From an uncultured Actinomycetes bacterium (GTDB taxonomy: Bacteria; Actinomycetota; Thermoleophilia; Gaiellales; Gaiellaceae), in contig CAVXHB010000018.1 in the NCBI GenBank assembly GCA_963761365.1, forward strand, positions 61-64,060: a DNA stretch of 64,000 nt. The letters run 5' to 3'. The notes under the pieces were generated by a model. The model searched no databases, had not been told where the DNA came from, and saw only the letters and a list, made by a program, of their open reading frames with translations. This document shows, one piece after another, positions 282 through 27,974 of the stretch (the stretch's first letter is position 1; every line of letters starts with the position of its first letter). A program made the translations under genes and the position numbers.

Positions 282-335
282 GATCTTGCCCCCTCTCTTG
301 ACGGGTTTGTCGCCTGCGGTAAACGGAGACCAATA

Positions 336-4672: not shown

Positions 4673-4745
4673 TGGAGCCAGGCGGGCTCGAACCGCCGAC
4701 CTCCTGGGTGCGATCCAGGCGCTCTCCCAGCTGAGCTATGGCCCC
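4673..4745 (-). tRNA. tRNA-Ala (anticodon CGC)
   Basis: 73-nt cloverleaf GGGGCCATAGCTCAGCTGGGAGAGCGCCTGGATCGCACCCAGGAGGTCGGCGGTTCGAGCCCGCCTGGCTCCA. It has the G3:U70 Ala identity pair and anticodon loop AUCGCAC. CCA is not encoded. Confidence 0.95.
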
Positions 4746-10007: not shown

Positions 10008-10094
10008 GAGTCTTCCCTCCTCATCGGTGTTGACCGGCCACTGCGGACGATCTGGAACTGCTGCGCGAGCGCGACTGGCACGGCTGCGCCGTGC

Positions 10095-11018: not shown

Positions 11019-11052
11019 GGTACTCCTCGCCCCAGGCTAGACTCGGCCCCCC

Positions 11053-11450
11053 GTGCTGCGTCGCCTCGCACCCCTGGCCGCTCTTGCGGTGCTCGCCTCC
11101 GGCTGCGGCGCCGGCCAGGTGATCTCGCCGGCGGCCGAGACGGTGATCGGCACCGTCGCCGACGCAGACCTGCCCCGTTCCGCCCGAATACGCCAAGGGC
11201 GACCCCGTCGCCGGCAAGGTGGTCTTCACCACGAAGGGCTGCACCGCCTGCCACACGCTCAAGGACGCCGGCGCCGACCGGGAACGTCGGGCCCGAACCT
11301 CGACGAGGCGAAGCCGCCGCTCGGCGAAGGCGATCGACCGGCTGCGTCCACGGCAAGGGCTGCGATGCCGCCGTTCAAGGGCGTGCTCTCGACCAAGCAG
11401 ATCGCCGACGTCGCCGCGTACGTCGTCAAGGCCACCGGCAGTCCGGCTGA
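11053..11450 (+). CDS. class I c-type cytochrome lipoprotein (frame-disrupted)
   Basis: Lipobox LAVLASGCGAG. Haem site VFTTKGCTACHTLKDAG (CxxCH). MPPFKGVLSTKQIADVAAYVVKATG. The pieces sit in three frames and the 3' end is approximate. Confidence 0.7.
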
Positions 11451-12279
11451 TCGAGCTCCCGGCGGACTTCCCCCGCGACGTCGACGTCGTCGCGACGGAC
11501 CTCGACCACACGCTTGACGTGGACGGACGGCGTGCTGCGACCCCGCACGCTCGCCACGCTCGCTCGCGCGCGAAGACGCGGGCCTGCACGTGATCGTCGT
11601 GACGGGCCGCATGGTGCAGTCGGTCCGCCGCGTGCTCGAGCCGGCCGGCTTGCACGAACCGGTCGTCTGCTACCAGGGCGCCGCCGTCGTGGCCGCGGAC
11701 GGCGAGTGGCTCCGGCACGTGCCGATCGAGCTCGAGCTCGCGACGCGAGGCGATCGCGGCGGTCGAGGCGGAGGGCTACGACCCGAACGTCTATGTCGGC
11801 GACGAGCTCTACGTCGTCGCAGATCACGCCGGAGGCGGAGGCGTACGCGAGCTTCCAGCAGCTCCCGATCCATACGGTCGGCGACGTCATGGAGTGGCTC
11901 CCGGAGCCGCCGACGAAGCTCGTCTGCGTCGGCGACCCGGCCGAGCTCGACGGGCGTCGGTGAGCGGATGCGCGCGCGCTTCGGCGACCGGCTGCGGGTC
12001 ACGAAGTCGCTGCCGAACTTCCTCGAGTTCGCAACGCTCGGCGTCACGAAGGGCTCGGGATGGAGTTCCTCTCCGAGCGGCTCGGCTTCTCGCCGGAGAA
12101 GACGATCGCCTTCGGCGACGGCGAGAACGACGTCGAGCTGCTCGAGTGGGCCGGCTACGGCGTCGCCGTCGAGAACGCGCACGAGCGGGTGAAGGCGGTC
12201 GCCGACTGGATCTGCCCGCCCGCGTCCGAGGAGGGCGTGGCTGCTCGTCCTGGATGCGCTTCTAGACTCACGCGGATGA
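11446..12279 (+). CDS. Cof-type HAD-IIB phosphatase (frame-disrupted)
   Basis: VVATDLDHTL, LHVIVVTGRMVQSVRRVLEPAGLHEPVVCYQGAAV, LEFATLGVTKGSG and IAFGDGENDVELLEWAGYGVAVENAHERVKAVADWI lie across several frames. The stop overlaps the serS ATG (ATGA). Confidence 0.7.
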
Positions 12280-13473
12280 TCGACCTCCGGCCGCCCGCGC
12301 CGACCCGGACCGCGTTTCGCGCGGCGCTCGCCCGCAAAGGGCGCCGCCGAGGCGTTCGACTCGCTGCTCGTCGCCGACGAGCGCTGGCGCGCGCTCGTGC
12401 CGAAGGTCGACGAGCTGCGCGGCGAAGCAGAACTCAAGGGCAAGCCGACGCCCGAGCAGCTGCGAGGAGCTCGGCGCCGTGAAGGACGAGTTGCGAACGC
12501 CGAGGACGAGCTCGTCTGCCGCCGAGGCCGAGCGCGACGCGCTGCTCGCCCAGGTGCCGAACCCGCCGGATCCATCGGCGCCCGACGGCGACACCGACGA
12601 CGACGCCGAGGAGCTCCGGCGCTGGGGCAACCCGAAGCCCGACGGGCCCGAGCACACCGAGGTCGGCCGTTTCGAGATGGAGCGGGCGCGCGTCTCTCGG
12701 GCTCGCGCTTCGGCTTCCTCGTCGGCGACACCGCGCTCGTCGCGATGGCGCTCTATCGCTTCGCGCTCGACCGCGCGCTCGCGCACGGCCACACGCCGGT
12801 GCGTGCCGCCGGTGCTCGTGCGCGAAGAGGCGATGTACGGCACCGGTTTCTTCCCGACCGACCGCTCGAACATCTATGCGCTCGAGCGACGACGAGCTCT
12901 ATCTCACCGGCACGTCCGAGGTCGCGCTCGCGGGGCTTCCACATGACCGAGATCCTCGATGAGCTGCCGTTGCGCTACGCGGGGTTCTCGACGTGCTTTC
13001 GGCGCGAGTCGGGCGCGGCCGGAAAGGACACGCGCGGCATGTTCCGCGTGCACCAGTTCAACAAGGTCGAGCTGTTCGTCTACTGCGAGCCCGAGCAGCT
13101 CGGACGAGGAGCACGACCGGCTGCTCGCGATCGAGGAGGAGCTCGTGCAGGCACTCGAGCCTGCCGTATCGCGTCGTCAACGTCGCCGCGGGCGATCTCG
13201 GCGCTCCGGCCGCGAAGAAGTACGACATCGAGGCGTGGTTCCCGTCGCAGCAGCGCTACCGCGAGATCACGTCGACCTCGAACACGACCGACTTCCAGGC
13301 GCGGCGGCTCGGGATTCGCTACCGCACCGACGACAAGAGGCTCGAGACCCCGCATACGCTGAACGGCACCGCGGTCACCGACCGCTGGCTGCTCGCGCTC
13401 CTCGAGAACTTCCAGCGGCGAGGTGCCGGACGTGCTGCGTGAGTTTGGCGCGCCCGCGCGCGTGAACAAGTAG
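12276..13473 (+). CDS. serS: seryl-tRNA synthetase (heavily frame-disrupted as sequenced)
   Basis: MIDLR..., [124 protein letters not shown] and [20 protein letters not shown]. At least 5 frame changes. Confidence 0.9.
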
Positions 13474-13479
13474 TGCGTC

Positions 13480-14435
13480 TGGGCGCTGCCGGCGCTCGTG
13501 CTGTTGCTCGCGGGGTGCGGCTCGACTCCCGCCATGATCGCTTTCACCTCGACGCGCGACGGCAACGCCGAGGTCTATGTCGATGCGCGCGGACGGAAGC
13601 CACGTTCAGGATCTGACGCAGAACCTCGCGCAGGACGGTGAGCCATCGTGGTCGCCCGATGGGAAGCGGATCGCGTTCGTGAGCGGCCGCGACGGCAATA
13701 TCCAGGTCTTCGTGATGAACGCCGACGGCAGTGGGCAGAAGCGGCTGACGCACTCGCAATCAGAGCGACATGGCGCCGGTCTGGTCGCCGGACGGTCGCA
13801 AGATCGCGTTCATGTGCACGACCGCCAAGCCCAACCTCGTCACCGAGATCTGCATCGTGAACGCCGATGGGTCGGGGGCACGCGAGCTGACGCGCCCTAG
13901 CCAGGGCGACAATCTCTACCCGGTGTGGACACACGATTCGAAGGTGGTCGTGTTCACGCGTCCCGGCGGTGGCTATTCCGTCGTCGGCGTCGATGTGAGC
14001 GGTAAGCAGCGGTTCCACATGATCAACGGTGTCGCGGAGGTGGTGTATCCGCAGGCAGGTGACACGCTGGCGTACCTCAGGCATTCCCCAGGCGGCGGGA
14101 AGTGGGCGTTGTACATCGGCCCACGGAAAATCTCGGCCACGTCGGGGAACGTCGATACGCCGGTGTGGTCGCCCGACGGGAAGCGGATCGCGTTCGCATC
14201 CAGGAGCTCTCGCTCCGATCTCTACGTCGTCAAGCGCGACGGCAGCGGCGAGCGGCGCTTGACCTCGGGGCCCGGGAACAGCATCAGTCCTCGCTGGTCG
14301 CCGGACGGGAAGTCGATTGCCTTCGAGCGATTGCGCGGCAACAGCTCGCAAGTTTTCACGGTGCATGCCGATGGCACGGGGGAGAAGCAGCTCACCCACG
14401 AAGGGAAGAACGGCGGTCCCGTGTGGCGGCCCTAG
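13480..14435 (+). CDS. TolB-like PD40 beta-propeller lipoprotein (start uncertain, frame-disrupted)
   Basis: Lipobox LLLAGCGS. Repeated PSWSPDGKRIAF / PVWSPDGRKIAF / PRWSPDGKSIAF blades with ADGSG turns. Confidence 0.7.
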
Positions 14436-14709
14436 TCCTCGCCGTCACGCTGCCAGGCGAGTTTCGACGCTGTAGTTGTTCGTGCTCATCGCGTGTCAGC
14501 GACCAGTCCGGCAGCACAGCCCAGACGGTCGCCGGCTGCCCGTCGCGTGACCAGGTGCGCACCCGGAGCTCGTCGGCGTGCGCCTTGGTGCGGATCGCCT
14601 GCCGCCAGCCTCGATGCTGCGTCGGTGCAAGCCTGCGCATCACCGAGCCGCGGCGCAGTAGAAGGAGGTAGTCCTGGGCGAGTTCGTCGTCGTCGAAGCG
14701 CTCGTACAT
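14392..14709 (-). CDS. hypothetical protein
   Basis: 105-aa ORF MYERFDDDELAQDYLLLLRRGSVMRRLAPTQHRGWRQAIRTKAHADELRV. The 3' end overlaps the convergent propeller gene. No family recognised. Confidence 0.35.
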   Translation of the reverse strand: MYERFDDDELAQDYLLLLRRGSVMRRLAPTQHRGWRQAIRTKAHADELRVRTWSRDGQPATVWAVLPDWSLTRDEHEQLQRRNSPGSVTARTRAATRDRRSSLRG

Positions 14710-14731
14710 CGCGAGGCTAGGATCGTGCCAC

Positions 14732-14819
14732 GGCGGGGTGGCCGGAGCGGTCGAAGGCGGTGGTCTTGAAAATCACTGAGCCTCACAGTCCTCCGTGGGT
14801 TCAAATCCCAGCCCCGCCG
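14732..14819 (+). tRNA. tRNA-Ser (anticodon TGA)
   Basis: 88 nt. Acceptor GGCGGGG/CCCCGCC, D-arm GCCGGAGCGGTCGAAGGC, anticodon loop CUUGAAA, long variable arm, T-loop TTCAAAT. The first pair of the T-stem is a G:G mismatch. Confidence 0.85.
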
Positions 14820-14838
14820 CTCGTTCCTCCGACCGTGG

Positions 14839-15492
14839 TCAGCGGTCGGCGCGCATGAGGAAGCCCGCTCGGCCCGGTGCGTGAACCTCGACGTGCGCGA
14901 AACCGGCATGCGTGAACAGAGCGCGGATCTGCGGCTCGGTGTAGTCGAAGATCGGGCAGTCGCTGAGGACCTCGTAGCGGAGCTTTCTGATCGGTCCCTT
15001 CAGCCAGTGCCAGGCGGGGAAGCTCGCGACCGCGGAGCCTGAGCACAGAGCACCGATTCGCATCGCGAAGGTTTCCGGCTCGCGCAGGTAGTCGAAGAGA
15101 CCGAGGCCGAGTACGACGTCGAACGGCTCCTCCGTCGGGAGCTCGAGAAAGTCACCCTGGACAAGCGTGACGCGTTCGCCGAATCGCGCGAGGCGAGCCC
15201 GCGCGAGGTCGAGCATCTCCGCAGCGAGATCCACGCCGAGGTACTCCGCAGCGCCCGCGTCGAGCACCAGCTCGCCAATGCGACCCGAGCCGCAGCCGAC
15301 GTCGAGCACACGTGGGTTCGCGCGCGAGCGGACCGCTTCGAGTGCCAGCTCCCGGCGGCGGACGAGACCTGGACGCAGCCACCGGGAGATCGGGCCGTCC
15401 TCGTCGTAGAGCGCGTCAAAGGAGGCGGCCTTCTTCCGAAAGTGACCGCCGACACGCTCCGACGTCGTCGAGGCGGGCGTATGCCTGCTCAC
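14839..15492 (-). CDS. class I SAM-dependent methyltransferase
   Basis: C-terminal part of ORF 14839-16254: VLDVGCGSGRIGELVL (motif I), VDLAAEMLDLAR, FDVVLGLGLFDYL. The GTG 15492 start is tentative. Confidence 0.75.
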   Translation of the reverse strand: MSRHTPASTTSERVGGHFRKKAASFDALYDEDGPISRWLRPGLVRRRELALEAVRSRANPRVLDVGCGSGRIGELVLDAGAAEYLGVDLAAEMLDLARARLARFGERVTLVQGDFLELPTEEPFDVVLGLGLFDYLREPETFAMRIGALCSGSAVASFPAWHWLKGPIRKLRYEVLSDCPIFDYTEPQIRALFTHAGFAHVEVHAPGRAGFLMRADR

Positions 15493-16334
15493 AGGTTTGC
15501 AGTCGAAATTCCCGCGCCGCCGCCTGGACGAGCCGCGGGACGCGGGCTCGGCCTGCTTCGCGCCAGAGCGTGCGCTCGGCCGCAAGCGCACGTTGCCCGA
15601 GCGACGCACCTTTCGGAAGGACGATGTGAAGCGCGTCCGGATCCCATTCATACGGATGGAAGTAGATCGTCGGTAGCCGGTCGTCGGTTGCCGCGGCACG
15701 GAGGGAGCGGAAGAGGGTCCGCTCCGGGAGCAGGCGCCAGTAGCTTCCGCCGCCGACCGGCAGTGTGATCCCTCCGACGCGCGAGACGGCGACCGGGAAC
15801 TCCCACAGCGTACGACCGGAGGCGAGCTCGAGAATGTAGGGCTCGCCGGGGATGCCCTGGATCCGGTTCGGGACTCGAGGCCGAGTCGTACTGGCTCGCG
15901 TCGTAGCGGAAACCGAGGTCTGCGAGCACCTCGTAGGCCCAGGGTGTGTTGCGGTTGATCGAGAACAGTGGCGCGCGGTATCCGGTTGCGACGCGACCCG
16001 TCGCGACCTCGATCGTCTCGAGCGCCGCCTGCAGGTCGTCTCGGAACTCGGCTGCCGTCTGGGTGTGCACGGGACGGTGGGCATCTCCGTGGCACGCGAT
16101 CTCGTGGCCGCGCGCGGCGATCTCGGCGGCCAGTTGCGGATAGCGCCGCACAGTCAGGCCGAGGAGGAAGAACGTCGCCCGCACGCCGAGTCCGTCGAGC
16201 CGATCGAGGATCGAGTCGACCTGGCGCGGGAGCGCGGGTCTCGCCTGGTCCCAATCGACGAGCCCGAGGCGGCGATGCACGAGTTGGTGCCAGTCTTCGA
16301 CATCGAACGTGAGCACGAGCGATTGACGGCTCAT
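15416..16334 (-). CDS. polysaccharide deacetylase family protein (NodB domain + DUF3473-like tail), one frame change near 15880
   Basis: MSRQSLVLTFDVEDWHQ, ATFFLLG, HEIACHGDAH, then YILELASGRTLWEFPVAV...GGGSYWRLLP...IYFHPYEWD. ATG 16334 overlaps the upstream stop (ATGA). Confidence 0.75.
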
Positions 16335-17672
16335 GGCTGCGAGAGGTGCGCCAGGAGGTTGTCGACCAACTGTCCCGACGGTCGGGTCGGAGAGAACCGA
16401 GCCTGCGAGGGTGAAGGCGCCCGCTGCGAAGACCTTTGCGCCGGACGGCGTCTCGTAGTAGGTCATTTGCGCGGTGAAGCCCTTGCCGAACAGGTCGGGG
16501 ATCTCCGCCAGCACGTGCACGTTCCGCGGCGAGGCGGCGCTGGTCGCGTCGATCTCGATGCCGCCGTTGCCGAACGAGCGAGCCGTCGACGAGATCGGTG
16601 CCGGCGAAGAGCCACTGCGGCGTCGGCGGTGTCGCGCACGATCCACGGCGCCGCGATGCTGTGCCGCCGTCGTTGCGCGCGGTACTCGGCGCCGATCAGC
16701 GACCCCTCGGGCGCGTCGAGATCGCGCCACTGCGTCGTCCGCTCGATCGTGTTCGCCGTGCCGGACGGTCTGCCAGAAGAAGTTGTTCGCCGAGAGGAAC
16801 GCGAGGTTGCCGCCGAGGTCCCGGTACCCGCGCACGAGCGCGTACTCGTGCGTCGTCACGTACTCGTGGTGGCCCGGGAAGACGATCAGGTCGTAGGCGC
16901 GCGCGAGTGCCTGCGGCGTTCGGACGCGCGTCGAGGTCGCCGTCGGAGAGGTAGTCGACGGCGTGGCCCGTCCATGCGAGCCAGTGCAGGAACGGCAGGT
17001 CGTAGTTGCGGAAGTGGTACGGGACGCCGCGATCGAGGATACGGCCGGTACAGGTGCGCCGTGTGGACGTTCCAGTCGGCGTACCAGCTGTCGCCCTTAC
17101 CGTCGCCGTTGTCGTCGCGGAGGTTGTAGGCCTGCCAGGTCATCGTCGGCAGGACGACGGCGACCCGGTGCTCGCCGAGCGAGCGGGGCGCGATGACGAC
17201 CGGCGCGAACCCGATACGTCCGTCGGCGGCGTGGAGCCGCGCGAAGTAGACGCCCGACGGCCAGTCGCCGATCGCGACTCGGACGACGCGATTCGGCGTG
17301 CAGGTGCCGATGCGCTTCGCGCGCGGTCACCGAGACGCCCTGCATCTCGCTGTTGCCGACCGTGACGGCGTGCTCGGGGCCGGTGTGGAAGATCTGCAGC
17401 GTGACGCCGCGCGCGCGGTTGAAACAGGCGAGCGAGGCGATGCTTCCGGGCGCGTAGCTCTCGCGTTGAAACGCGGCCTCGACGGAGGGCTGAAGCTCCT
17501 CGGCCGTGGGGGCCCGCCCTTCTAGCTCCTCGGCGCTCGAAAGCGTTGGGGTGGAGGTCGCGGCACCGGCGAGCAGCGCTGCGACTGCGAACGCGGCGGC
17601 AGGCCCGAGCAGCCAGAACCGGAGCGGGCGGCGGCCGGGAGTGCGGTTGAGACGTGCGGTGGCGGTTGACAT
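16331..17672 (-). CDS. secreted N,N-dimethylformamidase-large-subunit-like (DUF6605-type) protein, frame-disrupted
   Basis: Signal MSTATARLNRTPGRRPLRFWLLGPAAAFAVAALLAGA. VVLPTMTWQAYNLRDDNGDGKGDSWYADW, HEYVTTHEYALVRGYRDLGGNLAFLSANNFFWQ, GGIEIDATS and the tail LVDNLLAHLSQP. Confidence 0.55.
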
Positions 17673-17773
17673 GCAGCCACCGTCGAAGGGAGGCCCAATC
17701 TGACGACAACGCCTGCCCAACTGCACCCCAACGGCGGCTTTCGGATGCCTGCCGGCGGTGTTACAACCCGTTC

Positions 17774-19437
17774 GTGACCGAGTTCCGGATCCTCGGACCG
17801 CTCGAGGTCGTCGACGAGACCGGGCCGGTCGCGCTGACGGGCCAGAAGCAGCGGGCGCTGCTCGCGCTCCTGCTCATTCACGCCGGCGAGACGCTCTCGA
17901 CCGACCGCATCGTCGACGAGCTCTGGGGCGACAATCCGCCGCGGACGGCGACGACGTCGCTCTGGAACCTCGTCGCGCAGCTCCGCAAAGTGCTGCCGCC
18001 CGACGTGCTCGCCACCAAGCCGCCGGGGTACGTGCTCCAGGCTCGAGGGCCACGAGCTCGACCTCCGCCGCTTCGAGGAGCTCGTCGCCCGAGCACGAAC
18101 CGCCGATGCCGAGGAACGATCCGACCTGCTGCGACAGGGGCTTGCGCTCTGGCGCGGCGGACCGCTCGCCGACCTCGCCTACGAGACGTTCGCGCGGCGC
18201 GAGATCGAGCGACTCGACGAGCTACGCCTGGTGGTGCTCGAGGATCGGATCGACGCCGATCTCGAGCGAGGTGCTCACGCCGACCTCGCGGGCGAGCTCG
18301 AGGCGCTCGTGCAGGATCACCCGCTGCGCGAGCGGATCCGAGGCCAGCTGATGCTCGCGCTCTACCGCTCAGGGCGGCAGGCGGAAGCCCTTCAGGCGTA
18401 TCTCGATGCGAGGAGAACGCTTGTGGACGAGCTCGGGATCGAGCCGCGCCGCGAGTTGCAGGATCTGTACCGCGCGATCCTCCGACAGGAGACGGCTCTC
18501 GAGCGCGCCATCGCCCGCCCGCCTCTCTGACGACCACCTCGCCGACGTCGTTCGCGCCGCGCTGTCGGGTCGGCTTGTCGTCGTCCTCGGCGCCGACGTC
18601 GACCGGGCCCGCGACGGCGAGCGGCAGGAGCTGCCCGGGCTCGGGCGAGATCGTCGCTCATCTCGCGCACGCGTTCAGCTGTCCTCCCGAGCACGTTCGC
18701 GATCTCGCTCACGTCGCCGAGTACGTCGCCCTGACGAACGGCGTCGGGCCGCTCTACGACGAGCTCCACCAGCTCTTCGACCGCGACTCCACCCCCGGAC
18801 CGATCCACAAGGCGCTGGCCGAGCTCGACCGCTCGATCGCCGAGCGCAGCGCCTCGCACCAGCTCATCGTCACGACGAGCTTCCATGAGCTGCTCGAGCA
18901 GGCATTCAGGGCAGACGGATGCGAGTTCGACGTCGTTTCGTATCTCGCGGTCGGGCGGCACCAGGGCAAGTTCCTCCATTCGACACCCGACGGGGAGCCG
19001 ATCGTCGTCGACGCTCCGTACGCGTACACGGATGTCTCACCGGAACGTCGGAGCGTGATCCTGAAGATCCATGGCGGCATCGACCGCGGGCCCGAGTCGC
19101 GAATGGGAGAGCTTCGTCGTCAGCGAGGACGACCACATCGACCATCTCGCACACGGTGACATCGCAGTGGCGTTGCCGGTCACTCTCGCGGCTCGGCTCC
19201 GTCGAAGCCATTTTCTCTTTCTCGGCTACCCGCTGCAGGAGTGGAGTCTCCGCGTCTTTCTCCATCGCGTCTGGGGTCGCGAGAAGGTGGCGTACCGCTC
19301 GTGGGCGATCGCGCCGGCGCTCGACGGGATCGACAAGGAGCTCTGGCGCCAGCGTGGGATCGACATGTTCGACGCTCCCGCTCGACGAGTACGTTGCAGG
19401 CCTCGTACGGCGGCTCGAGGCCGAGGCAAAGCCGTGA
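17774..19437 (+). CDS. SARP-type regulator (OmpR/PhoB winged helix + BTAD) fused to a SIR2_2-family domain; five frame changes as sequenced
   Basis: VTEFRILGPLEVVDETGPVALTGQKQRALLALLL...YVLQ (wHTH). LRRFEELV...ALWRGGPLADL...LMLALYRSGRQAEALQAYLDARRTLVDELGIEP (BTAD). GRLVVVLGADV, LIVTTSFHELLE, ILKIHGG, VVSEDDHIDHL, FLFLGYPLQEWSL (SIR2_2 blocks). No start codon lies between BTAD and SIR2. Confidence 0.75.
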
Positions 19438-22400
19438 GCACCGATTCCGGCTCGCCGTACCGCGGCCTCGCTCCATTCCAGGATGCAGAGCACGACGTCC
19501 GGTTCTTCTTCGGCCGGGATCGAGAGCGCGAGCTGATCGAGGCGAATCTGATGGCGTCACGGCTGACCGTCCTCTACGGCGAGGCGGGGGTCGGCAAGAG
19601 CTCGGTGCTGCGCGCGGGCGTGGCGCATCACCTGCGGCGGGTCGCGAAGGAAAACCTCGAAACGCGGGGCGAGCCGGGGCTCGCGGTCGTCGTGTTCGAC
19701 GAGTGGCGCGACGATCCGGTACGGGCGCTTCGCGCCGCAGTCGCCGACGAGGTGACGCTCGCGCTCGGAGGCTCGATCATCCCGGCCGACGACGGCGGCT
19801 CGCTCGAGGACGCGCTTGGAATGTGGCAGGACATCCTCGGCGGCGAGCTGTACATCATCCTCGACCAGACGGAGGAGCTACTTCCTCTACCACGGCGGCG
19901 ACGACGAGCCGGGCACGTTCGGCTCCGACTTCCCCGCGATCGTGAACAACCCCGAGCTGCGCGTCAACTTCCTGCTCGCGCTGCGTGAGGACACGCTCGC
20001 GAAACTCGACGTCTTCCGGAGCCGGATTCCGAACGTGCTCGGAAACTATCTTCGGCTCGAGCATCTCGACATGCGGGCCGGACGGTCGGCGATCGTCGAA
20101 CCGGTCGCCGAGTACAACCGCCTTGTCGGACGAGGGCTCGAGGGTCGAGATCGAGCCGGCGCTCGTCGACGCCGTGCTCGAGCAGGTCGTCGCCGGCAAG
20201 GTCGAGATCGGGGCGACAGGCCGCGGCGTCGTCGAGAACACCGGCGGTGAGGTGCGGATCGAGACGCCGTACCTCCAGCTCGTGATGCGGCGGCTCTGGG
20301 ACGAGGAACTGGGCGAAGGCGGGAGGGAGCTCCGCGTGACGACGCTTCGCCGGCTCGGGGGCGCGGAGCAGATCGTGCGCGACCACGTCGAGCATGCGCT
20401 GACCGATCTCACTCCCGACGGAGAAGGACCACGCCGCGCGGCTCTTCGACCATCTGGTCACCCCGTCCGGGAGCAAGATCGCGCACGCGATCGGCGATCT
20501 CGCGAAGTACGCCGGGACGTCCGAGCCCGAGCTTCTGCCGGTGCTGGCCAAGCTCGGGAACGAGCGGATCCTCCGCTCGGTCGCCGGCGACGATTCGCGC
20601 GGCTCGCGGTACGAGCTCTTTCACGACGTACTCGCCGAGCCTGTGCTCGCGTGGAAAGCCGAACACGAGGCAAGCCGGGCGCTCGCCGCCGCGACGGAGC
20701 TCGCACGCAAGCGACACCGTCGGCTCGCAGTGGTCTCCGGCGCCTCACTTGCCGCGCTCGTTCTGCTCGCCGCATTGACGGTGTTCGCCTTCTCCCAGCG
20801 CAGCAAGTCGGCGAACCGTGAGCAGACGGCGAAGTCGCGCGAGCTCGCGGCGTCGGCCCTGACACAGATCGGCAACGATCCCGAGCTCGCGCTCTTGCTC
20901 GCAGTGCAGGCGGCGACCATCCAGGAGAACCCGAGCGTCGACAGCGCGATCCGCACGGCGCTCCTCGAATCGCGCGTCCGCCGGGTCGCGATGCTCGGCC
21001 GGCCCGTCGAGGCGATAGACGTGGCCTCGCGAGGGCACTTCGTCGTCTCGACGGGCAGCGAAACAGTGGTGCTCGACAAGCGGTTGAGAGTCGTGCGGAC
21101 GCTGCCGAGCTTCGGCCGCTTCCTTGGCGTTCGCGGCGCCCAGATGGTGTTCCTCACCGGGCGGGGGCTCGAGCTCCGACGCGTCAGCGACGGTCATCTG
21201 ACGCAGCTGATCCCGATCCGGGAAGGCGCGACCCTCGAAATTCACGACCTCGCCACCGGCGCTGTCGTCGGACACGTGCGCATGCCGAAGCACGTCACGC
21301 TCGCCGCACTCGGTCCCCGCGGCACGCTCCTCGCCGTCAGCGACGGATCGAACCGCGTGATCGTCATCGACGCGCTCACCGGGAATGCACGCCACGAGCT
21401 CCCCCAGCCCTCGAAGGTCACGGCGCTCGCCTTCGGGCCGGGCGCGCGGATTCTCGCGACCGGCGGCAAGGACGGCAACACGCGGCTCTGGACGGTCTCG
21501 ACCGGCAGGATCCGCGCCGTCCTCCGCGGCCAAGTCGGCGCAGTACGCGATGTCGCGTTCAGCCCGACCGAGACGCTGATCGCCTCGGCGAGCAATGACA
21601 ATACGGCGCGCGTGTTCCGCCTCGCGAATGGCGCTCGCGGTCGCGGTGATGTCGGGGCACTCGAACCCGGTCACCGATGTCGCCTTCAGTTCCGACGGGA
21701 CGAGAATCGTCACCGCGAGCGCAGACGGTACCGCGCGCGTCTGGAAGGCAGAGACTGGTGAGCCGCTTGCGGTGCTCCAGGGTGATCAGGGAGCGGTGAC
21801 GGCGGCGCGCTTCGCCGGCGACTCGTTCGTCGTCACCGGGAGTGACGACGGCTCGGTCCGGCTCTGGTATGCGCTCAAACAGCCGGAACTGGCGCTGCTC
21901 CACCAGTTCCCGCGACCGGTCGTGCGCGCGGCCTTCACATCCGACGGCCACGTCGAGGCCGTGACCAGCGACGGTCGTGCGCACATCCTCGCCGCGAACG
22001 GACGCGAGATCGCCACGCGCGCGGCAGGCCCGGCGCCGCCCGCTCGAGTCCGCCGCTGGAGTGAGTGCGACCGTCGCGGGAAGGCTCGTCACGCTGCACG
22101 AGCCCGACGGGCGTGACGTCGTTCTGCGCGGACACACGGCGCCTGTGACGTCGGTGCGATTCTCGCCGGACGGGACGGAAGTGGTGACCGCGAGCCGCGA
22201 CACGACGGCGCGGATCTGGGACGCGTCGACCGGGGCGTTGCTCGTCAGGCTCGCGCGGTAGACACAACGGCGTAGTTCGCGACGCGAGCTTCAGTCCCGA
22301 TGGCCGCTGGGTCGTCACCGCGGGGCCCGGCACCGCTGCGCTCTGGTCGTCGGACACCGGTGAGTTCTTCTTCTACCTCCAGGGCCACAGCGGCGACCTG

Positions 22401-22583
22401 ACCTCAGCTTCTTTCGATGCTGCCGGCGATCGCATTCTCACCTCGGGAGTCGACGGAACGGTCAGGACGTACGTGTGCGAGATCTGCCGAAGCGGTGCGG
22501 CTCTAGCCGATGTCGCGCGTGCGCGGCTCGCGCAGACCGGTCGCCAGCTCACGCCGGGCGAGCGAGCGCGCTTCCTTCGCTGA
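19434..22583 (+). CDS. nSTAND-type P-loop NTPase - single TM helix - WD40 repeat protein (frame-disrupted)
   Basis: GTG overlaps the upstream TGA (GTGA). [25 protein letters not shown]...[20 protein letters not shown] (Walker A). [10 protein letters not shown] (Walker B). [25 protein letters not shown]. At least 7 WD40 blades ([60 protein letters not shown]...). Tail CEICRSG...[11 protein letters not shown]. Confidence 0.75.
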
Positions 22584-22605
22584 AGTCAGAACGCAGCTTC
22601 CACGC

Positions 22606-23666
22606 TCACTCGAACCACATCAGCGTCGCGAGGATCACGTAGGTGGCGACGAGCGCCGCGCCCTCGAACACGACCGCCTCGCCATCGCCCGTGATCTGCC
22701 ACATCGCAATTGCCGTCACGACGAGAGCGCCGATGAACACCGGGCTGAGGACGAAGGTCAGGTGCGTGCCGAAGGCAAGTGAGCAGAGCACGAGCGCCGG
22801 GAAGAGGAAGACTGCGATCTGCGCCACCGAGTTCTTCACGACCGACACTGCCAGGTCGGCCTTGCCCTTCGCTGCGAGCGTGATCCCGACGACATTCTCG
22901 ACGGCATTGCCCGCGATCGCGACGATCACGAGGCCCGTGAACGCCTTCGAGATCCCGAGCGACTTGACCGCCGGGTCGAGCGCATTCACGAACCAGTCCG
23001 AGACGAAGGCCGCCGCGATGCCGCTCACCGCAAGCACGGCGAGCGCGACGTTGAACGAAAGCGCCTCCTCGTGCATCTCCGCTGCCTGCCTCCTCCTCGC
23101 GCGGCCCGTCGGAGCGGAGGTAATCGACAAGCCAGATCGCGTAGACGGCGAGCAGGGCGACCGCGCCGATCACCGAGATCGTCTGCTGGTGTTGGCTCGC
23201 TCGGTCACCCACCTGATTCGACAACCCGAGCAGGACGATGATCGAGATCGCGAGCAAGAGCAGGGTGGCCGTGTCCTGGGGCAGCCGTGTGCGGAAGCGC
23301 ATCACGCCGTCGGGCGCCTCGCGGGCTCCGGCGATGATCGTGAGCCCCAGCACGAGCAGCCCGTTCGCGAACAGCGAGCCCAGGATCGACGTCCGCGCAA
23401 CGACGAGCTCGCCCGGCCGAGAGCGCGAAGAGGACGATGAAGAGCTCCGGCAGGTTCCCGAGCGTGGACTGCAACGCGCCGGTGATCGCCGGCCCGAACC
23501 GCTCGCCGACCGCTTCGGTCGCGATTGAGATCGACCACGCAAGCCCGCCGAGCGCAAAGCCGGCGACGATGAAGACAGCGACCGGCTGGATGTGGGCGAA
23601 ATGGAGGACGCCGGTAACGACGGCCACTCCGAGGATCGCGGCAAGGACGACACCGGTTCTGGACAC
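22606..23666 (-). CDS. Ca2+/H+ antiporter (CaCA/CAX family), frame-disrupted
   Basis: The two halves each carry the alpha-repeat: GPAITGALQSTLGNLPELFIVL and GLVIVAIAGNAVENVVGITLA. Multiple TM segments. The central part sits in other frames. Confidence 0.75.
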
Positions 23667-23688
23667 GCGCGGACTCTAATCGGCGCAC

Positions 23689-23729
23689 AAAAAAAAGAAG
23701 CGCCCCAGTCCGCATCAGGGGCGCTTCTT
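23689..23729 (-). terminator. rho-independent terminator after the WxL-like gene
   Basis: Perfect 12-bp stem AAGAAGCGCCCC / GGGGCGCTTCTT with an 11-nt loop. On the minus strand it is followed by a run of 8 T. Confidence 0.8.
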
Positions 23730-23789
23730 GGCTTTCTCGCTACCGCCTCTCGGGCAGCGGTCCGTCGGGCGGTGCGAGAAACTTGTCGC

Positions 23790-24341
23790 TTACGGCCCGG
23801 AGACTGCTGCGACCGTGATCGTGCTCGTGTAGCTCCCGGCGTAGGAGTTGCCCGGAATCGAGACGTTGATCGTCGGGGTAAGCGTGAAGCGGCCGAGGCC
23901 GGTGGTGGCCGCCGAGTTGAAGAGCTTGACGGCTGCCGGGGCGGATGCTGCCGCCGGCATGGTGAGCGGGTAGGTGATCGAGTTCGTCGCGTTGGTGCAG
24001 GTGCCGCCCGCGACGCAGGCCATCGAGACCGAGGCGATCGAGGAGGCGCTCGTGGCGAGGGTGTGACCGGCGCCATCGTTGAACGTGGTCGAGGTGACCG
24101 TCAGGTTCCAGCCTGTGCCGGTGCCGCGGGCATCCGTCAGGGTGAGGGGGAGGGTGTAGCCGACCGTCTGATCCGTGCCGTCGAGCGTGTCTGTGAGCGT
24201 TGCGGTGGCGCCGTTGCTGAGCGCGAGCGAGCCTGCGCCCGAAACCGTGGCCGTTGCCGTCACGGTGCCGGCGACTGCTGCTGCTGCAAGCGCGAGGGCT
24301 GCAACTGCAAGTCCGCTGAAAATGATGATCCGCTGCTTCAT
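23790..24341 (-). CDS. secreted WxL-domain-like protein
   Basis: AAGGAG RBS and signal MKQRIIIFSGLAVAALALAAAAVAG. DARGTGTGWNLTVTSTTF (WxL-type motif) and C-terminal NSYAGSYTSTITVAAVSGP. Intact. Confidence 0.6.
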   Translation of the reverse strand: MKQRIIIFSGLAVAALALAAAAVAGTVTATATVSGAGSLALSNGATATLTDTLDGTDQTVGYTLPLTLTDARGTGTGWNLTVTSTTFNDGAGHTLATSASSIASVSMACVAGGTCTNATNSITYPLTMPAAASAPAAVKLFNSAATTGLGRFTLTPTINVSIPGNSYAGSYTSTITVAAVSGP

Positions 24342-24464
24342 GGTGTGTCCGTCTCCTTGGGTCGCTGCTGGGTTGATGGGCTCAGTGTCGGAGACGCGGG
24401 TTGGCTTTCGAGGGGCCGCACCGTATGCAGCGCGTATGAGGTCAAAAATCCGTTCTCTCACAGA

Positions 24465-24490
24465 GAGAAGGCCCCGATCGGGGCCTTCTC
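24465..24490 (-). terminator. hairpin terminator candidate after secreted-protein gene
   Basis: GAGAAGGCCCC-GATC-GGGGCCTTCTC, a perfect 11-bp stem. On the minus strand a T5 run follows about 16 nt downstream. Confidence 0.55.
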
Positions 24491-24515
24491 AGTCGAGCAT
24501 TCGTGCGGTTCGAAA

Positions 24516-25199
24516 TCAGTCGTCGTCGTCGTGACCGCGCTGATCGTTCCCGTGGTGGTCCTGCGCGTGCTTCTGGTGGTTGAAGTAGCTGACGCACTGG
24601 CCCTGGTTACGGAACGACGGGCTCGTGAAGCTCTTCCAGCCGCCATGCTTGCAAGCGTTCTTCGAGGTCGGGCCGGGTGCCGGAACCTCGGCCACGCCGT
24701 TGAAGGTGATGTTGCTCAGGTCGGCAGTGCCCTGCACGTCGAGGACTATGTCGACCGAGGTGATCGTCCCGCTCGGAACGGCCACCTGGTTTCCGCCGGC
24801 GGCGATCGTGGCTGCCGTGAACGTGTAGGTCCGGGTGCCGTCTGCGTTCGTCGTCGGGATGACGTTGTTACACCCGAGGAAGTTGGTTGTGCTGGTCGTG
24901 CCGTTCGTCGTCACGACGTTGAAGCGTGGCGAACCGCCGTTGCACACACTCGCGGCCGTGAGCGTGAACGACGCGGAGCTGAACGTCCCGCTGACACCCG
25001 TGATGGTCGCGCCTGCGGACACGACGGTGGTCGTTGGGCAGTTCTTGGCGAGATGGAGCACACCGCCGCTGAAGGTCGAGGTCACGCAGCCGGCGTCCGC
25101 GGGATTCAAGGCGTACGTCCAGGGAACGAGCGCCGCAGACGCGGTTGCGGCCACCACCAATGCTGCCGCCGCCACGGCGGTCACGATCAATCTCTTCAT
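24516..25199 (-). CDS. secreted hypothetical protein with Cys pairs and His/Asp-rich tail
   Basis: Intact. Signal MKRLIVTAVAAAALVVAATASA, a Thr/Ser/Ala-rich beta-type body with 8 Cys, and tail HQKHAQDHHGNDQRGHDDDD. No family recognised. Confidence 0.55.
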   Translation of the reverse strand: MKRLIVTAVAAAALVVAATASAALVPWTYALNPADAGCVTSTFSGGVLHLAKNCPTTTVVSAGATITGVSGTFSSASFTLTAASVCNGGSPRFNVVTTNGTTSTTNFLGCNNVIPTTNADGTRTYTFTAATIAAGGNQVAVPSGTITSVDIVLDVQGTADLSNITFNGVAEVPAPGPTSKNACKHGGWKSFTSPSFRNQGQCVSYFNHQKHAQDHHGNDQRGHDDDD

Positions 25200-25282
25200 C
25201 TTTTTTTCCCCCTTTTTGTTTCGGTCTCCTTCAGCCTTCCCGGGGATTGGGGGGATTCGGTGCCCTGGAGGTAAGGGGTTTG

Positions 25283-25834
25283 TTAGGCCGCAGGCCGAAA
25301 TGCGAGCAGTTCGGGGCCGTGCTTGGTGAGCCAGTCTCGCTGGTTGTGCCAGTTCGGCCGGCGCGAGGCGACGAGCTTCCAGAAGCGGGCTGAATGGTTC
25401 GGCTCGATCAGATGGCAGAGCTCGTGCACGACGACGTAATCGAGCACCTCGAACGGGGCGAGCGCAAGGCGCCAGTTGAATGAAAGGGCGCCGCTCGACG
25501 AGCACGATCCCCAGCGTGCGCGCTGGTTGCGGATCTCGACCCGCCCAACCGAGACGCCGAGTACCGGCGCCTCCTCGTCGAGCACCATCCCCACGAGCTC
25601 GCGTGCCGCCTGCCGCCCTTCCGTCTCCGAGATCTTCCGCGCGTCCAGCCGCAGGCGCGGCACCTGCGCGGCGCGCTCGCGCGCGATCCACGCGCGATGC
25701 GACTCGATCACCTCGGCAATCTCGCGCTCTCGCATTCGGGCCGGGACCGTGAGGAGGACTGGTTCGCCCCACGGAATCGTGATCGTCCAGCGACGGGCCC
25801 GCCGCGAGCGCCTGATCTCCACCAGTTCGTCCAT
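25283..25834 (-). CDS. YgjP-like (DUF45 / M48-type) metal-dependent hydrolase
   Basis: Intact 183 aa: RNQRARWGSCSSSGALSFNWRLALAPFEVLDYVVVHELCHLIEPNHSARFW (HExxH). Confidence 0.75.
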   Translation of the reverse strand: MDELVEIRRSRRARRWTITIPWGEPVLLTVPARMREREIAEVIESHRAWIARERAAQVPRLRLDARKISETEGRQAARELVGMVLDEEAPVLGVSVGRVEIRNQRARWGSCSSSGALSFNWRLALAPFEVLDYVVVHELCHLIEPNHSARFWKLVASRRPNWHNQRDWLTKHGPELLAFRPAA

Positions 25835-25854
25835 TTGCCTAGTCTGCCGGGGGC

Positions 25855-26608
25855 ATGGGACGTGCGATCGCGACAACGCTCGTCGCGCTCGCCGTCCTGA
25901 CGGCGCTCGTGCTCGGCGGCGTGCTGACCGGGCTCGACGAGTGGGGGCTCGATCACGTGATGCCGGCGCTCGATCCGAGGGCCCATGGGACGGGCATCGT
26001 CTCGAGCAACGGGCTCTGGCGGCCATTTCCGTTGCACGTGCCGTGGTGGCAGAAGGCACTCGATCTCTACACCTATCCCGGCTCGGCGCTCGTGTCGGGC
26101 GTCGTTGGTGGCAATCGCGTGTGTAGCGCTCGCGCGACGCGGCCGGCTCTGGGCGGCGCTCGTGTGGCTGGGAGCGTGGCTTGCGGGCAGCGTGATCGAG
26201 CTGATCGGCAAGCACGTCCTCGACCGCCCGTCGCTCTACTGGACGAACGGGCACGCTCGGATCCACGTCGCGCCGTTCGCGAACTCGTACCCCAGCGGGC
26301 ACACGATCCGCTCGGTCGTGATTGCGGCGCTGCTCGCCTTCGTCTGGCCCCGCGCGAAAGTGCCCCTGGCCGTGTGGCTCGCGTTCGTGCCGGTCGCGCT
26401 CGTGGTCGTCGCTGCCCACACGATCACCGATGTGATCGGCGGCCTGCTGCTCGGTGTGCTGATCGTGCTCGTCGCGCACGCCATGATTCGGGTATGGACC
26501 CGGTCGCCACGGTTCTCGGGCAACTCGAGCGAGGGGAGCTCGGAAACCCCGAGGCGGTCCTGGCCTACCTCGCCGGCCAGACGCTCGAGCTCCCCGCCGG
26601 CGAGCTGA
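25855..26608 (+). CDS. PAP2-superfamily phosphatase (one frame change near 26100; 3' end uncertain)
   Basis: N-terminal TM MGRAIATTLVALAVLTALVLGGVL. KHVLDRP, SYPSGHT and HTITDVIGG acid-phosphatase motifs in ORF 25985-26608. The tail overlaps the next gene, so the true stop is probably earlier. Confidence 0.65.
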
Positions 26609-26886
26609 ACGAGGCCCGGCGCCGCACGCTCCTCCTGCTCGCGGCCGGCGGGGATCCCCACCGCGAGCTCGAGATCGACGATCGCGCGGTCAAGGCGCTC
26701 GCTGCCGAGCTCTGGACCGAGGAACGTCGCGCCGGCCTGGCGGCGGGACTGGACGAGCTGGCTCTCCGGGCGCGCGAGCTGCCGCGGGTGCGCGAGGTCG
26801 TCCTTGGCCTTGCGACCGACCTCGATCTCGCGTGGCGGCTCTTCGCGCTCACGCTGGTCGCGGAGGAGCTTGCCTCGGACGAGTGA
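26494..26886 (+). CDS. hypothetical protein
   Basis: In-frame ATG inside ORF 25855-26886. Helical, acidic 130 aa (MDPVATVLGQLERGELGNPEAVLAYLAGQ...). No family recognised. Confidence 0.4.
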   Translation: MDPVATVLGQLERGELGNPEAVLAYLAGQTLELPAGELNEARRRTLLLLAAGGDPHRELEIDDRAVKALAAELWTEERRAGLAAGLDELALRARELPRVREVVLGLATDLDLAWRLFALTLVAEELASDE

Positions 26887-26924
26887 TTCAGCACGGCGCG
26901 ACGAATTGCCGACTAGCTGCTCGT

Positions 26925-27974
26925 ATGCGGCGAGTCGTCATCTTGCTTGTGCTCGTTGCGGGCGCCCTCGCTCCTGCCGCGGGTGCATCACAGGTGATCA
27001 GCACCAGCACCGCCACCGGGATCAAGCTCGGGGTCGACGCCAAAGGTCAGGCGTTCCTCAGCTACAAGTCCGGCGGCAAGGATGTCAACGTCCTCGCGTG
27101 GGGCGCGATCAACGCACTCGCGCCGACGCCGGGCGGCAAGCAGGTGGCGTTCCAGCTCGACTACTCGGGTGGGTACACGCTCTTCAAGGGCGACCTCGCA
27201 AAGGCGACGGGCCAGCTTCGCGCCGATCAGGCGCAGTTCCGCAAGGCGCAGTCTGCGGCGAAGGCGCAGGGGAAGAAGTACACGCCCGACGTGACCAAGT
27301 TCAGCGCCGCGGTCAACAAGGACTACGCGGACATCCAGAAGATCCACGAGCAGTCGAGCAACGTCGGCAGCTCCTTCACGTGCCCGAAGTACACGGGCCC
27401 GCCGCTCGCATGGATGATTGTCGCGTGCAACGCGCCCGACGGCAGCTACTGGGCCGTGCAGTCGTGGCAGCGCCTGCTGCCGGACTACGGCGTCGCACCG
27501 ACCCCGACACAGGCCGCCTGGGAGGTTCACCTCTCGCACTGGACCGGCCCGCTGCCGGCGCTGACCGTCAATACCGACTGGGCGTGGCATCAGTGGGATC
27601 ACCTCTTCGGCACCTACACCTACGGCGACAACGCCGTCTACGGCTTCAAGTCGACGTCGGTCGGCGCGCCGCTCGACACCTTCGGCCGCAACGTCTACGT
27701 GGACACGTTCGACTCGAAGTACGGCACGGGCTGGATCCGGGAGAACAGCTTCCTGACGCATACCGGTGACGGCGTGTTCTGTTACAGCTTCAACCCGCAC
27801 GGCGCGCATCCGGCCGGCAACGGCTCGAAGTACCGCGCGACGATCCTCGGCCCCGGCGTCACGCCGGACGTGATGTGGGAGGGCACACCGCCCGGCCCGT
27901 ACGACAAGGCGCTCGACGCGAGTGCGAACGCTGCGATCGCGGGCCTGCACGACAAGCAGTGCCAGCCGAACTAA
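26925..27974 (+). CDS. secreted hypothetical protein
   Basis: Intact 349 aa. Signal MRRVVILLVLVAGALAPAAGASQ. Trp-rich conserved-looking core (YWAVQSWQRLLPDYG, WEVHLSHWTG, DWAWHQWDHLFGTYTYG). No family recognised. Confidence 0.6.
   Translation: MRRVVILLVLVAGALAPAAGASQVISTSTATGIKLGVDAKGQAFLSYKSGGKDVNVLAWGAINALAPTPGGKQVAFQLDYSGGYTLFKGDLAKATGQLRADQAQFRKAQSAAKAQGKKYTPDVTKFSAAVNKDYADIQKIHEQSSNVGSSFTCPKYTGPPLAWMIVACNAPDGSYWAVQSWQRLLPDYGVAPTPTQAAWEVHLSHWTGPLPALTVNTDWAWHQWDHLFGTYTYGDNAVYGFKSTSVGAPLDTFGRNVYVDTFDSKYGTGWIRENSFLTHTGDGVFCYSFNPHGAHPAGNGSKYRATILGPGVTPDVMWEGTPPGPYDKALDASANAAIAGLHDKQCQPN

Follow-up and report, generated by a model that had tools for sequence, protein, structure and literature searches.

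In AfsR of Streptomyces coelicolor, a SARP head, a NOD/NB-ARC NTPase, and tetratricopeptide repeats (TPRs) are joined in a single polypeptide whose NTPase and sensor modules control the head; the NOD/TPR modules gate the head, which stays a monomer as long as it is off DNA, and each protomer of a SARP binds one of a series of direct repeats spaced 11 or 22 bp apart (PMC10936776). EmbR of Mycobacterium tuberculosis is a SARP fused to an FHA adaptor, which couples it to a membrane receptor Ser/Thr kinase. In Avs5 (SIR2-STAND), one cytoplasmic polypeptide begins with an active SIR2 NADase, continues with a STAND NTPase, and ends in a C-terminal sensor. In nSTAND1 conflict systems, effectors are linked through death-like or EAD adaptor domains; the paper describing them leaves BTAD/SARP unmentioned and brings in SIR2 solely among the many effectors of a different system (Kaur, Burroughs, Iyer, and Aravind 2021; PMC8195603). 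Here we analyze two adjacent genes from a 64-kb stretch of DNA (herein the window; 64,000 nucleotides) of an uncultured actinomycete of the Gaiellaceae (contig CAVXHB010000018.1). Gene 1 joins a SARP head to a SIR2-like domain, and gene 2 encodes a membrane-anchored nSTAND1 NTPase with a WD40 region. Each part comes from a known family, and AfsR is a precedent for a SARP head under STAND control; what was unexpected is a repeatedly de-catalyzed SIR2 domain that appears as a constant coupling module, together with a STAND receptor that would span the membrane.

We put at about even the chance that the pair is a transmembrane STAND signaling unit whose SARP output activates a secreted-enzyme operon, rather than an NAD-depleting defense system. 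Somewhat more tentatively, we suggest that it belongs to an undescribed class of transmembrane (TM) STAND receptors with a variable outer sensor, a largely non-catalytic SIR2 coupling partner, and interchangeable outputs, the SARP version being an immune-type module recruited for envelope remodeling genes. Two assumptions would then need widening: that bacterial SIR2 domains on STAND NTPases are NAD-depleting suicide effectors, and that STAND NTPases are cytoplasmic sensors. The large soil Actinomycetota family described below appears to differ on both counts. Its SIR2 domain repeatedly loses catalytic residues while the NTPase partner is always kept, the NTPase is anchored in the membrane and its sensor is predicted to lie outside, and a genuine SARP head serves as output, with candidate sites before genes for secreted peptidoglycan- or polysaccharide-acting enzymes. 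If true, this would show concretely how an immune-type module can be reused to regulate genes and would add a new mode of SARP control, relevant to activating silent gene clusters; it would define a modular signaling scaffold with swappable outputs and caution against calling SIR2-STAND pairs defense systems from domain content alone.

Domain organization and conservation of the gene pair

Gene 1 (17774-19437, plus strand; GTG start) encodes 552 residues after correction of the sequence errors detailed in the last section, and its product is 97-98% identical to an intact metagenomic protein, P0001, which stood in for it in structure modeling. Pfam analysis of the corrected protein delineates an OmpR-type winged-helix DNA-binding domain (17774-18044, plus strand; Trans_reg_C, 1.3e-9) with the recognition helix TSLWNLVAQLRK at 17954-17989, a bacterial transcriptional activator domain (BTAD; 18057-18482, plus strand; PF03704, 4.4e-43 over the full-length profile), and a SIR2-like domain (18523-19434, plus strand; PF13289, SIR2_2, 3.5e-15), so that the three parts assigned to gene 1 by an earlier, sequence-only reading of this DNA are all recovered. 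The winged helix followed by BTAD is the domain order of the SARP family. For P0001, AlphaFold gave a model with a mean predicted local distance difference test score (pLDDT) of 77.7, and Foldseek aligns its N-terminal half with the SARP domain of AfsR (TM-score 0.89, 44-45% identity) and with EmbR (34-35% identity); by sequence, the gene 1 head matches the AfsR SARP with E = 3.5e-51. In the alignment, the positions through which AfsR contacts bases (T88 and R92) are occupied by N65, which never varies in the family, and by Q69, conserved in ≥90%. In NCBIfam the models closest to the head are AfsR and BagI/FevR, yet it falls far short of both cut-offs, the AfsR model scoring 210 bits against a cut-off of 1430 and covering the head only.

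Six nucleotides 5' of the gene 1 start codon lies a conserved element, (G)TGTTACAACC (17760-17768, plus strand), and no Shine-Dalgarno sequence is present there. The element is conserved in the window and in the homologous loci L001, L012, L013, L014, and L022, with variant forms in L015, L016, and L017; it may be the extended -10 box of a leaderless gene 1 mRNA.

Gene 2 (19434-22583, plus strand; GTG start) encodes 1047 residues after correction. It begins with the typical nSTAND1 motif (PY[RK]GL...FFGR) and matches the Pfam nSTAND1 profile well above cut-off (PF20703, 8.4e-38, residues 8-402) over an NTPase module, predicted to be cytoplasmic, at 19455-20642 (plus strand), in which both Walker A (GEAGVGKSS, 19578-19604) and Walker B (19848-19877) are intact. 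A hydrophobic segment preceded by the basic stretch RKRHRR forms a single predicted TM helix (20724-20795, plus strand), beyond which lie a WD40 β-propeller region, the predicted extracytoplasmic sensor (21204-22475, plus strand; seven scored WD40 repeats and matches to many propeller families), and an invariant CxxC tail (22476-22487, plus strand). The tail residues C1013 and C1016 are the only two conserved cysteines of gene 2 and stand C-terminal to the helix. The nSTAND N-terminus, Walker motifs, one TM helix, WD40 blades, and CxxC tail listed in the sequence-only reading are all present. Comparison of 11 orthologues shows the Walker residues G49, G52-K55, S57, D144, Q145, and E148 to be invariant, and Walker A, Walker B, the TM helix, and the CxxC tail are conserved in every one; all 11 intact proteins also match WD40/propeller families, and the hydrophobic segment recurs at an equal relative position in each of them and in every more distant nSTAND1 relative checked. 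A C-terminal repeat sensor is a STAND hallmark; a TM helix between NTPase and sensor is unusual.

With an NTPase that depends on nucleotide from the cytoplasm and only one TM helix, the WD40 region would face outward; the predicted topology is N-in with WD40 outside, and the basic RRHRR cluster before the helix fits it. Such a plan resembles that of the receptor kinase PknD, a cytoplasmic enzyme linked by one TM helix to an extracellular β-propeller. A large protein search with the NTPase part returned matches that were all shorter than ~780 residues, and P0271, a partial homologue at 72% identity, was modeled instead. Its pLDDT exceeds 90 over most of residues 10-450, with a confident NTPase/winged-helix module followed by one long helix (399-479) that runs through the TM segment. 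The nearest solved folds (Cdc6/Orc1, Apaf-1, plant NRC, and Avs5, with EfAvs5 at rank 47) are all distant, no close solved relative was found, and the NTPase profile run against Protein Data Bank (PDB) sequences gave P-loop noise only.

The gene 1 TGA overlaps the gene 2 GTG start (GTGA, 19434-19437). Translational coupling of gene 1 to a membrane-anchored nSTAND1-WD40 NTPase holds after correction, and the same 4-bp start/stop overlap occurs in L001, L005, L006, L008, L089, L093, and L096. Searching 5.8 billion proteins yielded >100 intact clusters of ~552 residues that carry PF00486, PF03704, and PF13289 together, at 97% to 61% identity; in these, BTAD and SIR2 form a continuous open reading frame (ORF). 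The named SARP-SIR2 clusters derive from metagenome-assembled genomes (MAGs) of Gaiellaceae, and full-length matches among the GTDB representative genomes all come from Gaiellaceae, Thermoleophilia-type, or unclassified Actinomycetota MAGs. Across 88 loci, an nSTAND1 gene lies directly downstream in 22/22 SIR2-bearing loci, with gene 1 identity down to 44%, whereas 1/66 SARP-only loci has anything NTPase-like downstream (26% identity). Housekeeping genes flank the pair, synteny is kept from 44% to 98% identity within one lineage, and no defense island was seen in the flanks of the inspected loci. These comparisons establish the pair as a real, widely conserved two-gene unit of soil actinobacteria; its members are conserved neighbors across genomes, and the Trans_reg_C, BTAD, SIR2_2, nSTAND1, and WD40 profiles named in the sequence-only reading are all matched.

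Set beside AfsR, the pair has in common a SARP head and a STAND-class NTPase with a repeat sensor tied to that head. In contrast to AfsR, the NTPase sits on a separate, translationally coupled protein and belongs to the nSTAND1 clade (NB-ARC in AfsR), it is membrane-anchored with its WD40 region predicted outside (cytoplasmic TPRs in AfsR), a SIR2-like domain intervenes between head and NTPase partner, and N65 and Q69 take the place of the base contacts T88 and R92; SARP, NB-ARC/NOD, and TPR are not united in one polypeptide. With Avs5 it shares a SIR2-family domain, a STAND NTPase, and a C-terminal sensor. The modules are nevertheless divided between two genes, the SIR2 motifs are degenerate, and a SARP head, a TM helix, and a WD40 region are present; neither a single cytoplasmic SIR2-STAND polypeptide nor a match to the corresponding defense model is found. 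The subclade seen here differs from the nSTAND1 conflict systems in that its NTPase is followed by a TM helix and a dedicated SIR2 partner is encoded upstream. The arrangement also recalls EmbR, with a SIR2-like adaptor for FHA and a STAND NTPase for the kinase as membrane partner, and a kinase-SIR2 variant of the module exists (L040). In the searchable literature we found no description of a SARP-SIR2 fusion or of a SIR2 partner for TM-nSTAND1 proteins, nor, in line with the first judgment, a described system to which the architecture could be assigned.

Direct repeats and candidate target genes

The 101-bp intergenic region between gene 1 and a divergent DMFA2_C-like gene contains four direct repeats with an 11-nt period (17695-17738, minus strand), a candidate SARP binding array that ends 22 nt before the divergent start codon. 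Read on the minus strand from 17738 to 17695, the repeats are GCCGCCGTTGG, GGTGCAGTTGG, GCAGGCGTTGT, and CGTCAGATTGG. The pattern CAAC-N7-CAAC-N7-CAAC occurs once in the window and in 0/100 shuffles, and the two-repeat pattern is likewise unique within the window. Homologous arrays, also candidate sites, are found in relatives: [CG]GTT[AG]G arrays stand in equal register to the start of a secreted-protein gene in L005, L006, L008, L009, L011, L012, L013, L015, and L017. In L005 and L006 the DMFA2_C gene is downstream of the pair and convergent with it; there the repeats accompany that DMFA2_C gene, and gene 1 has none upstream of it. When both strands of the window and 84 non-redundant loci (2.1 Mb) were scanned for triple repeats, nine matches were obtained, all adjoining SIR2 pairs and none (0) in 66 control loci.

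The candidate target operon diverges from gene 1. Its first gene (16331-17672, minus strand) encodes a DMFA2_C-domain protein with a signal-peptide-like N-terminus and is frameshifted in the window; the intact orthologue at L001:6568-7899 carries PF20254. The second gene (15416-16334, minus strand) encodes a polysaccharide deacetylase (Polysacc_deac_1 plus DUF3473), and its counterpart at L001:5654-6571 overlaps the DMFA2_C gene by 4 bp. Genes that are preceded by arrays or adjoin the pair in the wider set encode DMFA2_C proteins, M23 peptidases, polysaccharide deacetylases, and one lipoprotein, with signal-like N-termini. A DMFA2_C gene is a neighbor in 11/18 SIR2 loci against 1/66 controls, and a DMFA2_C, M23, or deacetylase gene lies within 6 kb in 17/18 non-redundant SIR2 loci against 1/66 controls (Fisher 1e-15).

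Many of the DMFA2_C, M23, and deacetylase genes behind arrays have a similar 5' region, CGACGGTGGCnGCATG, despite encoding different enzyme families, and many also have leaders that resemble one another at the N-terminus, with approximately MAT.T.HI.R ahead of a hydrophobic stretch. The shared 5' region and leader are seen in the window (16331-17672, minus strand) and in L005, L006, L008, L009, L011-L013, L015, L018, and L019; it looks as if a common promoter-leader cassette precedes different secreted enzymes. In L016, the gene for a separate large SARP-cyclase-ATPase-TPR protein of 1269 residues (L016:711-4520) lies directly upstream of both the repeat array and the lipoprotein gene, and two different SARPs may act in this neighborhood.

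The SIR2-like domain and the role of the pair

PF13289 scores 56.8 bits on gene 1 against a cut-off of 24.5, and the C-terminal half of the P0001 model has the Rossmann fold of SIR2 proteins, Foldseek returning KomC (Kongming), ThsA, DSR2, and SIR2/HerA with E values from 6e-10 to 1e-6 at 13-23% identity. The model was needed for this comparison; phmmer of the SIR2 part against PDB sequences gave no meaningful match. No SLOG domain, ThsB, HerA, or KomA/B partner is found in the neighborhood of the window pair, nor is there the TIR gene that would accompany a ThsA-type SIR2 protein (SIR2 plus SLOG or TM) in Thoeris.

A clean fragment of the window (18635-19093) was used as query against 1.84 billion representative proteins and gave 600 SIR2 subfamily clusters at E ≤ 1e-10, with the consensus TTN[YF]D ... 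K[IL]HG; a canonical member aligns its TTNYD and FxGYS-type blocks with those of the characterized NADases KomC and DSR2. The sequence-only reading had recognized all four SIR2_2 signature blocks in gene 1. All are present, but two, those for NAD binding and catalysis, are degenerate. The Gly-rich loop reads LGADV (18586-18600, plus strand), with GAG changed to GAD, where the commonest family forms are LGAGV or VGAGV; and the window protein and P0001 both have TTSFH (18872-18886, plus strand) in place of TTN[YF]D, with Ser for Asn and His for Asp. The catalytic His of K[IL]HG is retained (His432, in KIHGG at 19064-19078, plus strand). Among 150 subfamily representatives Asn is found in 102 and Asp in 136, and the LGAD[VA] form of the loop occurs in 5/120 SARP-SIR2 clusters. 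Parsimony on an average-linkage tree of these 120 clusters gave the minimum number of state changes: Asn is kept in 61 clusters (at least 15 changes), His in 104 (lost in 16; at least 7 changes), and Asn, Asp, and His together in 53 (~44%; at least 16 changes). The non-catalytic positions GPLYD, EDD, RRSHFLFLGY, and YRSWA are invariant; because these persist and the catalytic set is repeatedly lost, the fold and its surfaces are under selection and NAD chemistry inconsistently so. In ThsA, the N112A and H152A substitutions each abolished NAD+ cleavage, and NAD+ binding was absent in both mutants (PMC7272460). The SIR2-like domain of this clade is probably a pseudo-enzyme that has lost residues for NAD+ hydrolysis, and the gene 1 product does not resemble the NAD-consuming protein for which it had been taken.

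The same residues bear on a different account, in which the SIR2 domain binds NAD+, an ADP-ribose derivative, or another nucleotide with slow turnover or none, the ligand sets SARP activity, and gene 2 supplies or modulates the input. The retained Rossmann-type fold with its invariant blocks would suit such a nucleotide-gated transcription factor, as would the full catalytic set in ~44% of members, and structure titles place ThsA-type and KomC-type SIR2 proteins under nucleotide-signal control. Yet the change from GAG to GAD puts an acidic residue into the normally phosphate-binding loop, the Asn without which ThsA failed to bind NAD+ is absent, no enzyme that generates a signal nucleotide adjoins the SARP variant, and the constant SIR2-nSTAND1 pairing, whichever head is attached, is left unexplained. 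We regard this account as doubtful, and a catalytic NAD link of the switch as unlikely in the window protein.

The pairing extends beyond SARP proteins. A Pfam scan of the subfamily representatives revealed cyclase-SARP-SIR2, cyclase-SIR2, Pkinase-SIR2, XRE-HTH-SIR2, TIR-SIR2, and CHAT-TPR-SIR2 architectures, stand-alone SIR2 proteins of ~320 residues, and complete nSTAND1-HEAT-SIR2 polypeptides. Every variant whose neighborhood was inspected has a SIR2 gene followed by an nSTAND1 gene of one subclade: no head in L093, a TIR head in L094, XRE-HTH in L095, CHAT in L096, a cyclase in L089 and L092, and a kinase in L040. The nSTAND1 proteins encoded beside these heads match the orthologue profile with E ≤ 1e-127 and have one TM helix ~415-490 residues in, and their regions C-terminal to the helix vary (WD40, Pro/Thr-rich and Cys-containing, CarboxypepD_reg, SH3) and look extracytoplasmic. 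On this comparative evidence, SIR2 plus TM-nSTAND1 is the constant core of the module and the head is interchangeable.

Several members of the subfamily have further peculiarities. An extra N-terminal class-3 nucleotide cyclase is present on SARP-SIR2 proteins of ~750-780 residues (P0044, P0052, P0053, P0067, P0109, and P0124); at the cyclase-SARP-SIR2 loci L008:5086-7347 and L010:5287-7623, each protein carries two output domains and the nSTAND1-WD40 pairing is kept. The cyclase-SIR2 plus TM-nSTAND1 locus L089:3409-10534, on a Chloroflexota-type contig, adjoins genes for a cyclic nucleotide monophosphate (cNMP)-binding SpoIIE phosphatase and STAS/anti-sigma-kinase proteins, which suggests a downstream reader of the cyclase output, from cNMP to partner switching. 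The six complete nSTAND1-HEAT-SIR2 single polypeptides (P0156, P0176, P0212, P0251, P0258, and P0270) have no convincing TM helix and carry SIR2 at the C terminus, the usual place of the sensor, as a reversed-order fusion of both families. Apparent BTAD-SIR2-nSTAND1 and SIR2-nSTAND1 fusions (P0123, P0126, P0130, and P0196), first taken for Rosetta-stone evidence, were dropped; the proteins are truncated, their Arg/Gly-rich tails look out of frame, and some of the records stem from error-prone long-read assemblies.

TIR and CHAT heads among the relatives are what one would look for if the pair were a SIR2-STAND anti-phage or abortive system, in which WD40 detects an invader, the NTPase oligomerizes, the SIR2 NADase is activated, and the SARP only autoregulates. 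The SIR2 fold is indeed closest to the defense NADases KomC, ThsA, DSR2, and SIR2/HerA, nSTAND1 was defined within conflict systems (PMC8195603), His432 is retained, and the PADLOC ThsA model is matched by 40/55 family members, canonical relatives among them, with a best E of 6e-13. For the window proteins themselves, however, PADLOC gave marginal matches only (ThsA model, E = 0.003) and no Avs model match; they lack the TTN[YF]D Asn and Asp and have GAD for GAG, the catalytic set is repeatedly lost in the family, and the Asn is essential in ThsA. Housekeeping flanks with synteny at 44% to 98% identity in one lineage, a sensor predicted outside the cytoplasm, conserved SARP recognition residues, and candidate target sites beside secreted-enzyme genes also speak against it. 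We consider defense improbable. The sequence-only reading had offered a defense module or an NAD-linked transcriptional switch; the repeats, the secreted-enzyme neighbors, the housekeeping flanks, and the predicted outside sensor favor the switch.

An ordinary pathway-specific SARP that activates a secondary-metabolite cluster beside an unrelated WD40 protein would accord with the best-known role of SARPs, the activation of antibiotic gene clusters, and with the NCBIfam proximity of the head to AfsR and BagI/FevR, far below cut-off as it is, but gene neighborhoods contradict this: no biosynthetic genes flank the pair in any inspected locus, the partner gene is kept without exception and is coupled to gene 1 in translation, and the candidate targets are secreted hydrolase-type genes, which makes this reading very unlikely.

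In the transmembrane signaling unit that we favor, gene 2 would be a single-pass membrane receptor with a cytoplasmic nSTAND1 switch, a TM helix, and a WD40 propeller region of ~590 residues outside, and gene 1 the soluble output, its SARP head activating transcription and its SIR2-like domain docking or coupling to the nSTAND1 NTPase. A signal at the propeller would alter the nucleotide or oligomeric state of the NTPase; this change would cluster or release SARP-SIR2 molecules through the SIR2-like domain; the SARP heads would then occupy the 11-bp-spaced direct repeats at 17695-17738; and the divergent operon for secreted envelope-acting enzymes (DMFA2_C-like plus polysaccharide deacetylase) would be switched on. 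As the AfsR head is monomeric off DNA and gated by its NOD/TPR modules, an oligomerizing partner is a plausible loader of three or four heads. The topology, the binding of the repeats by the SARP, the SIR2-nSTAND1 contact, the direction of regulation, and the nature of the signal are all inferred.

Several points weigh against this proposal, each step of which is computational. Sequestration and release of the activator by the membrane NTPase would fit the data equally well as assembly. The topology was derived from a hydropathy scan and charge counts. The repeat-bearing loci are related, so that synteny and promoter footprints are dependent and the counts given above overstate independence, and the repeat motif was defined after its first sighting. 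A sigma-70 scan of 17500-22800 found no site, and hence no -10/-35 for the target operon. The catalytic His is kept in the window protein, and with ~44% of the family keeping the full Asn/Asp/His set, enzymatic activity may matter in part of it. TIR and CHAT heads, as borne by relatives, are typical of cell-death or conflict systems, and Pfam and the Joint Genome Institute (JGI) label nSTAND1 proteins conflict-system ATPases.

Sequence errors and the wider window

When 17640-22700 is translated in six frames, two long plus-strand coding regions emerge, each shifted forward by one frame five or six times. We aligned 10084-27176 of the window (~17 kb) with L001, a JGI soil/rhizosphere metagenome contig, at 94.4% identity. 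Relative to L001 the window has 69 single-base insertions and 17 deletions; every gene is affected, homopolymer runs are not, and ~15 of the 69 insertions fall in the seryl-tRNA synthetase gene. Exactly 11 single-base insertions lie within the pair, each at a frame jump: 18039, 18507, 18633, 19095, and 19380 in gene 1, and 19880, 20127, 20418, 21637, 22042, and 22253 in gene 2. The insertion at 18507 is the cause of the stop codon that separates BTAD from SIR2. Once the 11 bases are deleted, both ORFs run without a break, at 552 and 1047 residues, with the GTGA overlap at 19434-19437 kept, and the corrected products are 98% (gene 1) and 93% (gene 2) identical to those of intact genes on four metagenome contigs (L001-L004; 94% DNA identity), with which gene order is shared. 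The frame changes suspected in the sequence-only reading are real features of the window sequence, and this comparison corrects them and upholds the junction; it identifies the breaks as sequence errors, without gene decay.

That the two genes are decayed pseudogenes or a reading-frame artifact, with BTAD and SIR2 parts separate or dead, would account for 11 frame breaks per 4.8 kb and for a stop exactly where BTAD meets SIR2, but it is scarcely credible and was rejected in the face of like insertions in every gene across ≥17 kb (n = 69), the seryl-tRNA synthetase gene included, both ORFs restored by removing 11 bases, intact copies on four contigs, and >100 intact fused homologues.

The insertion pattern at 10084-27176, and probably in the whole window, fits an unpolished, insertion-prone assembly in which essentially all genes are frameshifted; the ORFs of the window are therefore untrustworthy before correction. 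Positions 1-4745 of the window have a G+C content of 57-60% against ~69% elsewhere and end at a tRNA gene (4673-4745, minus strand). The ORFs there have no obvious relatives, although one of them (3510-4139) appears restriction-endonuclease-like by eye, and the segment may be an integrated island. A second tRNA gene (14732-14819, plus strand; Rfam, 40.8 bits) lies between a methyltransferase-like region and a PD40/Tricorn-like gene.

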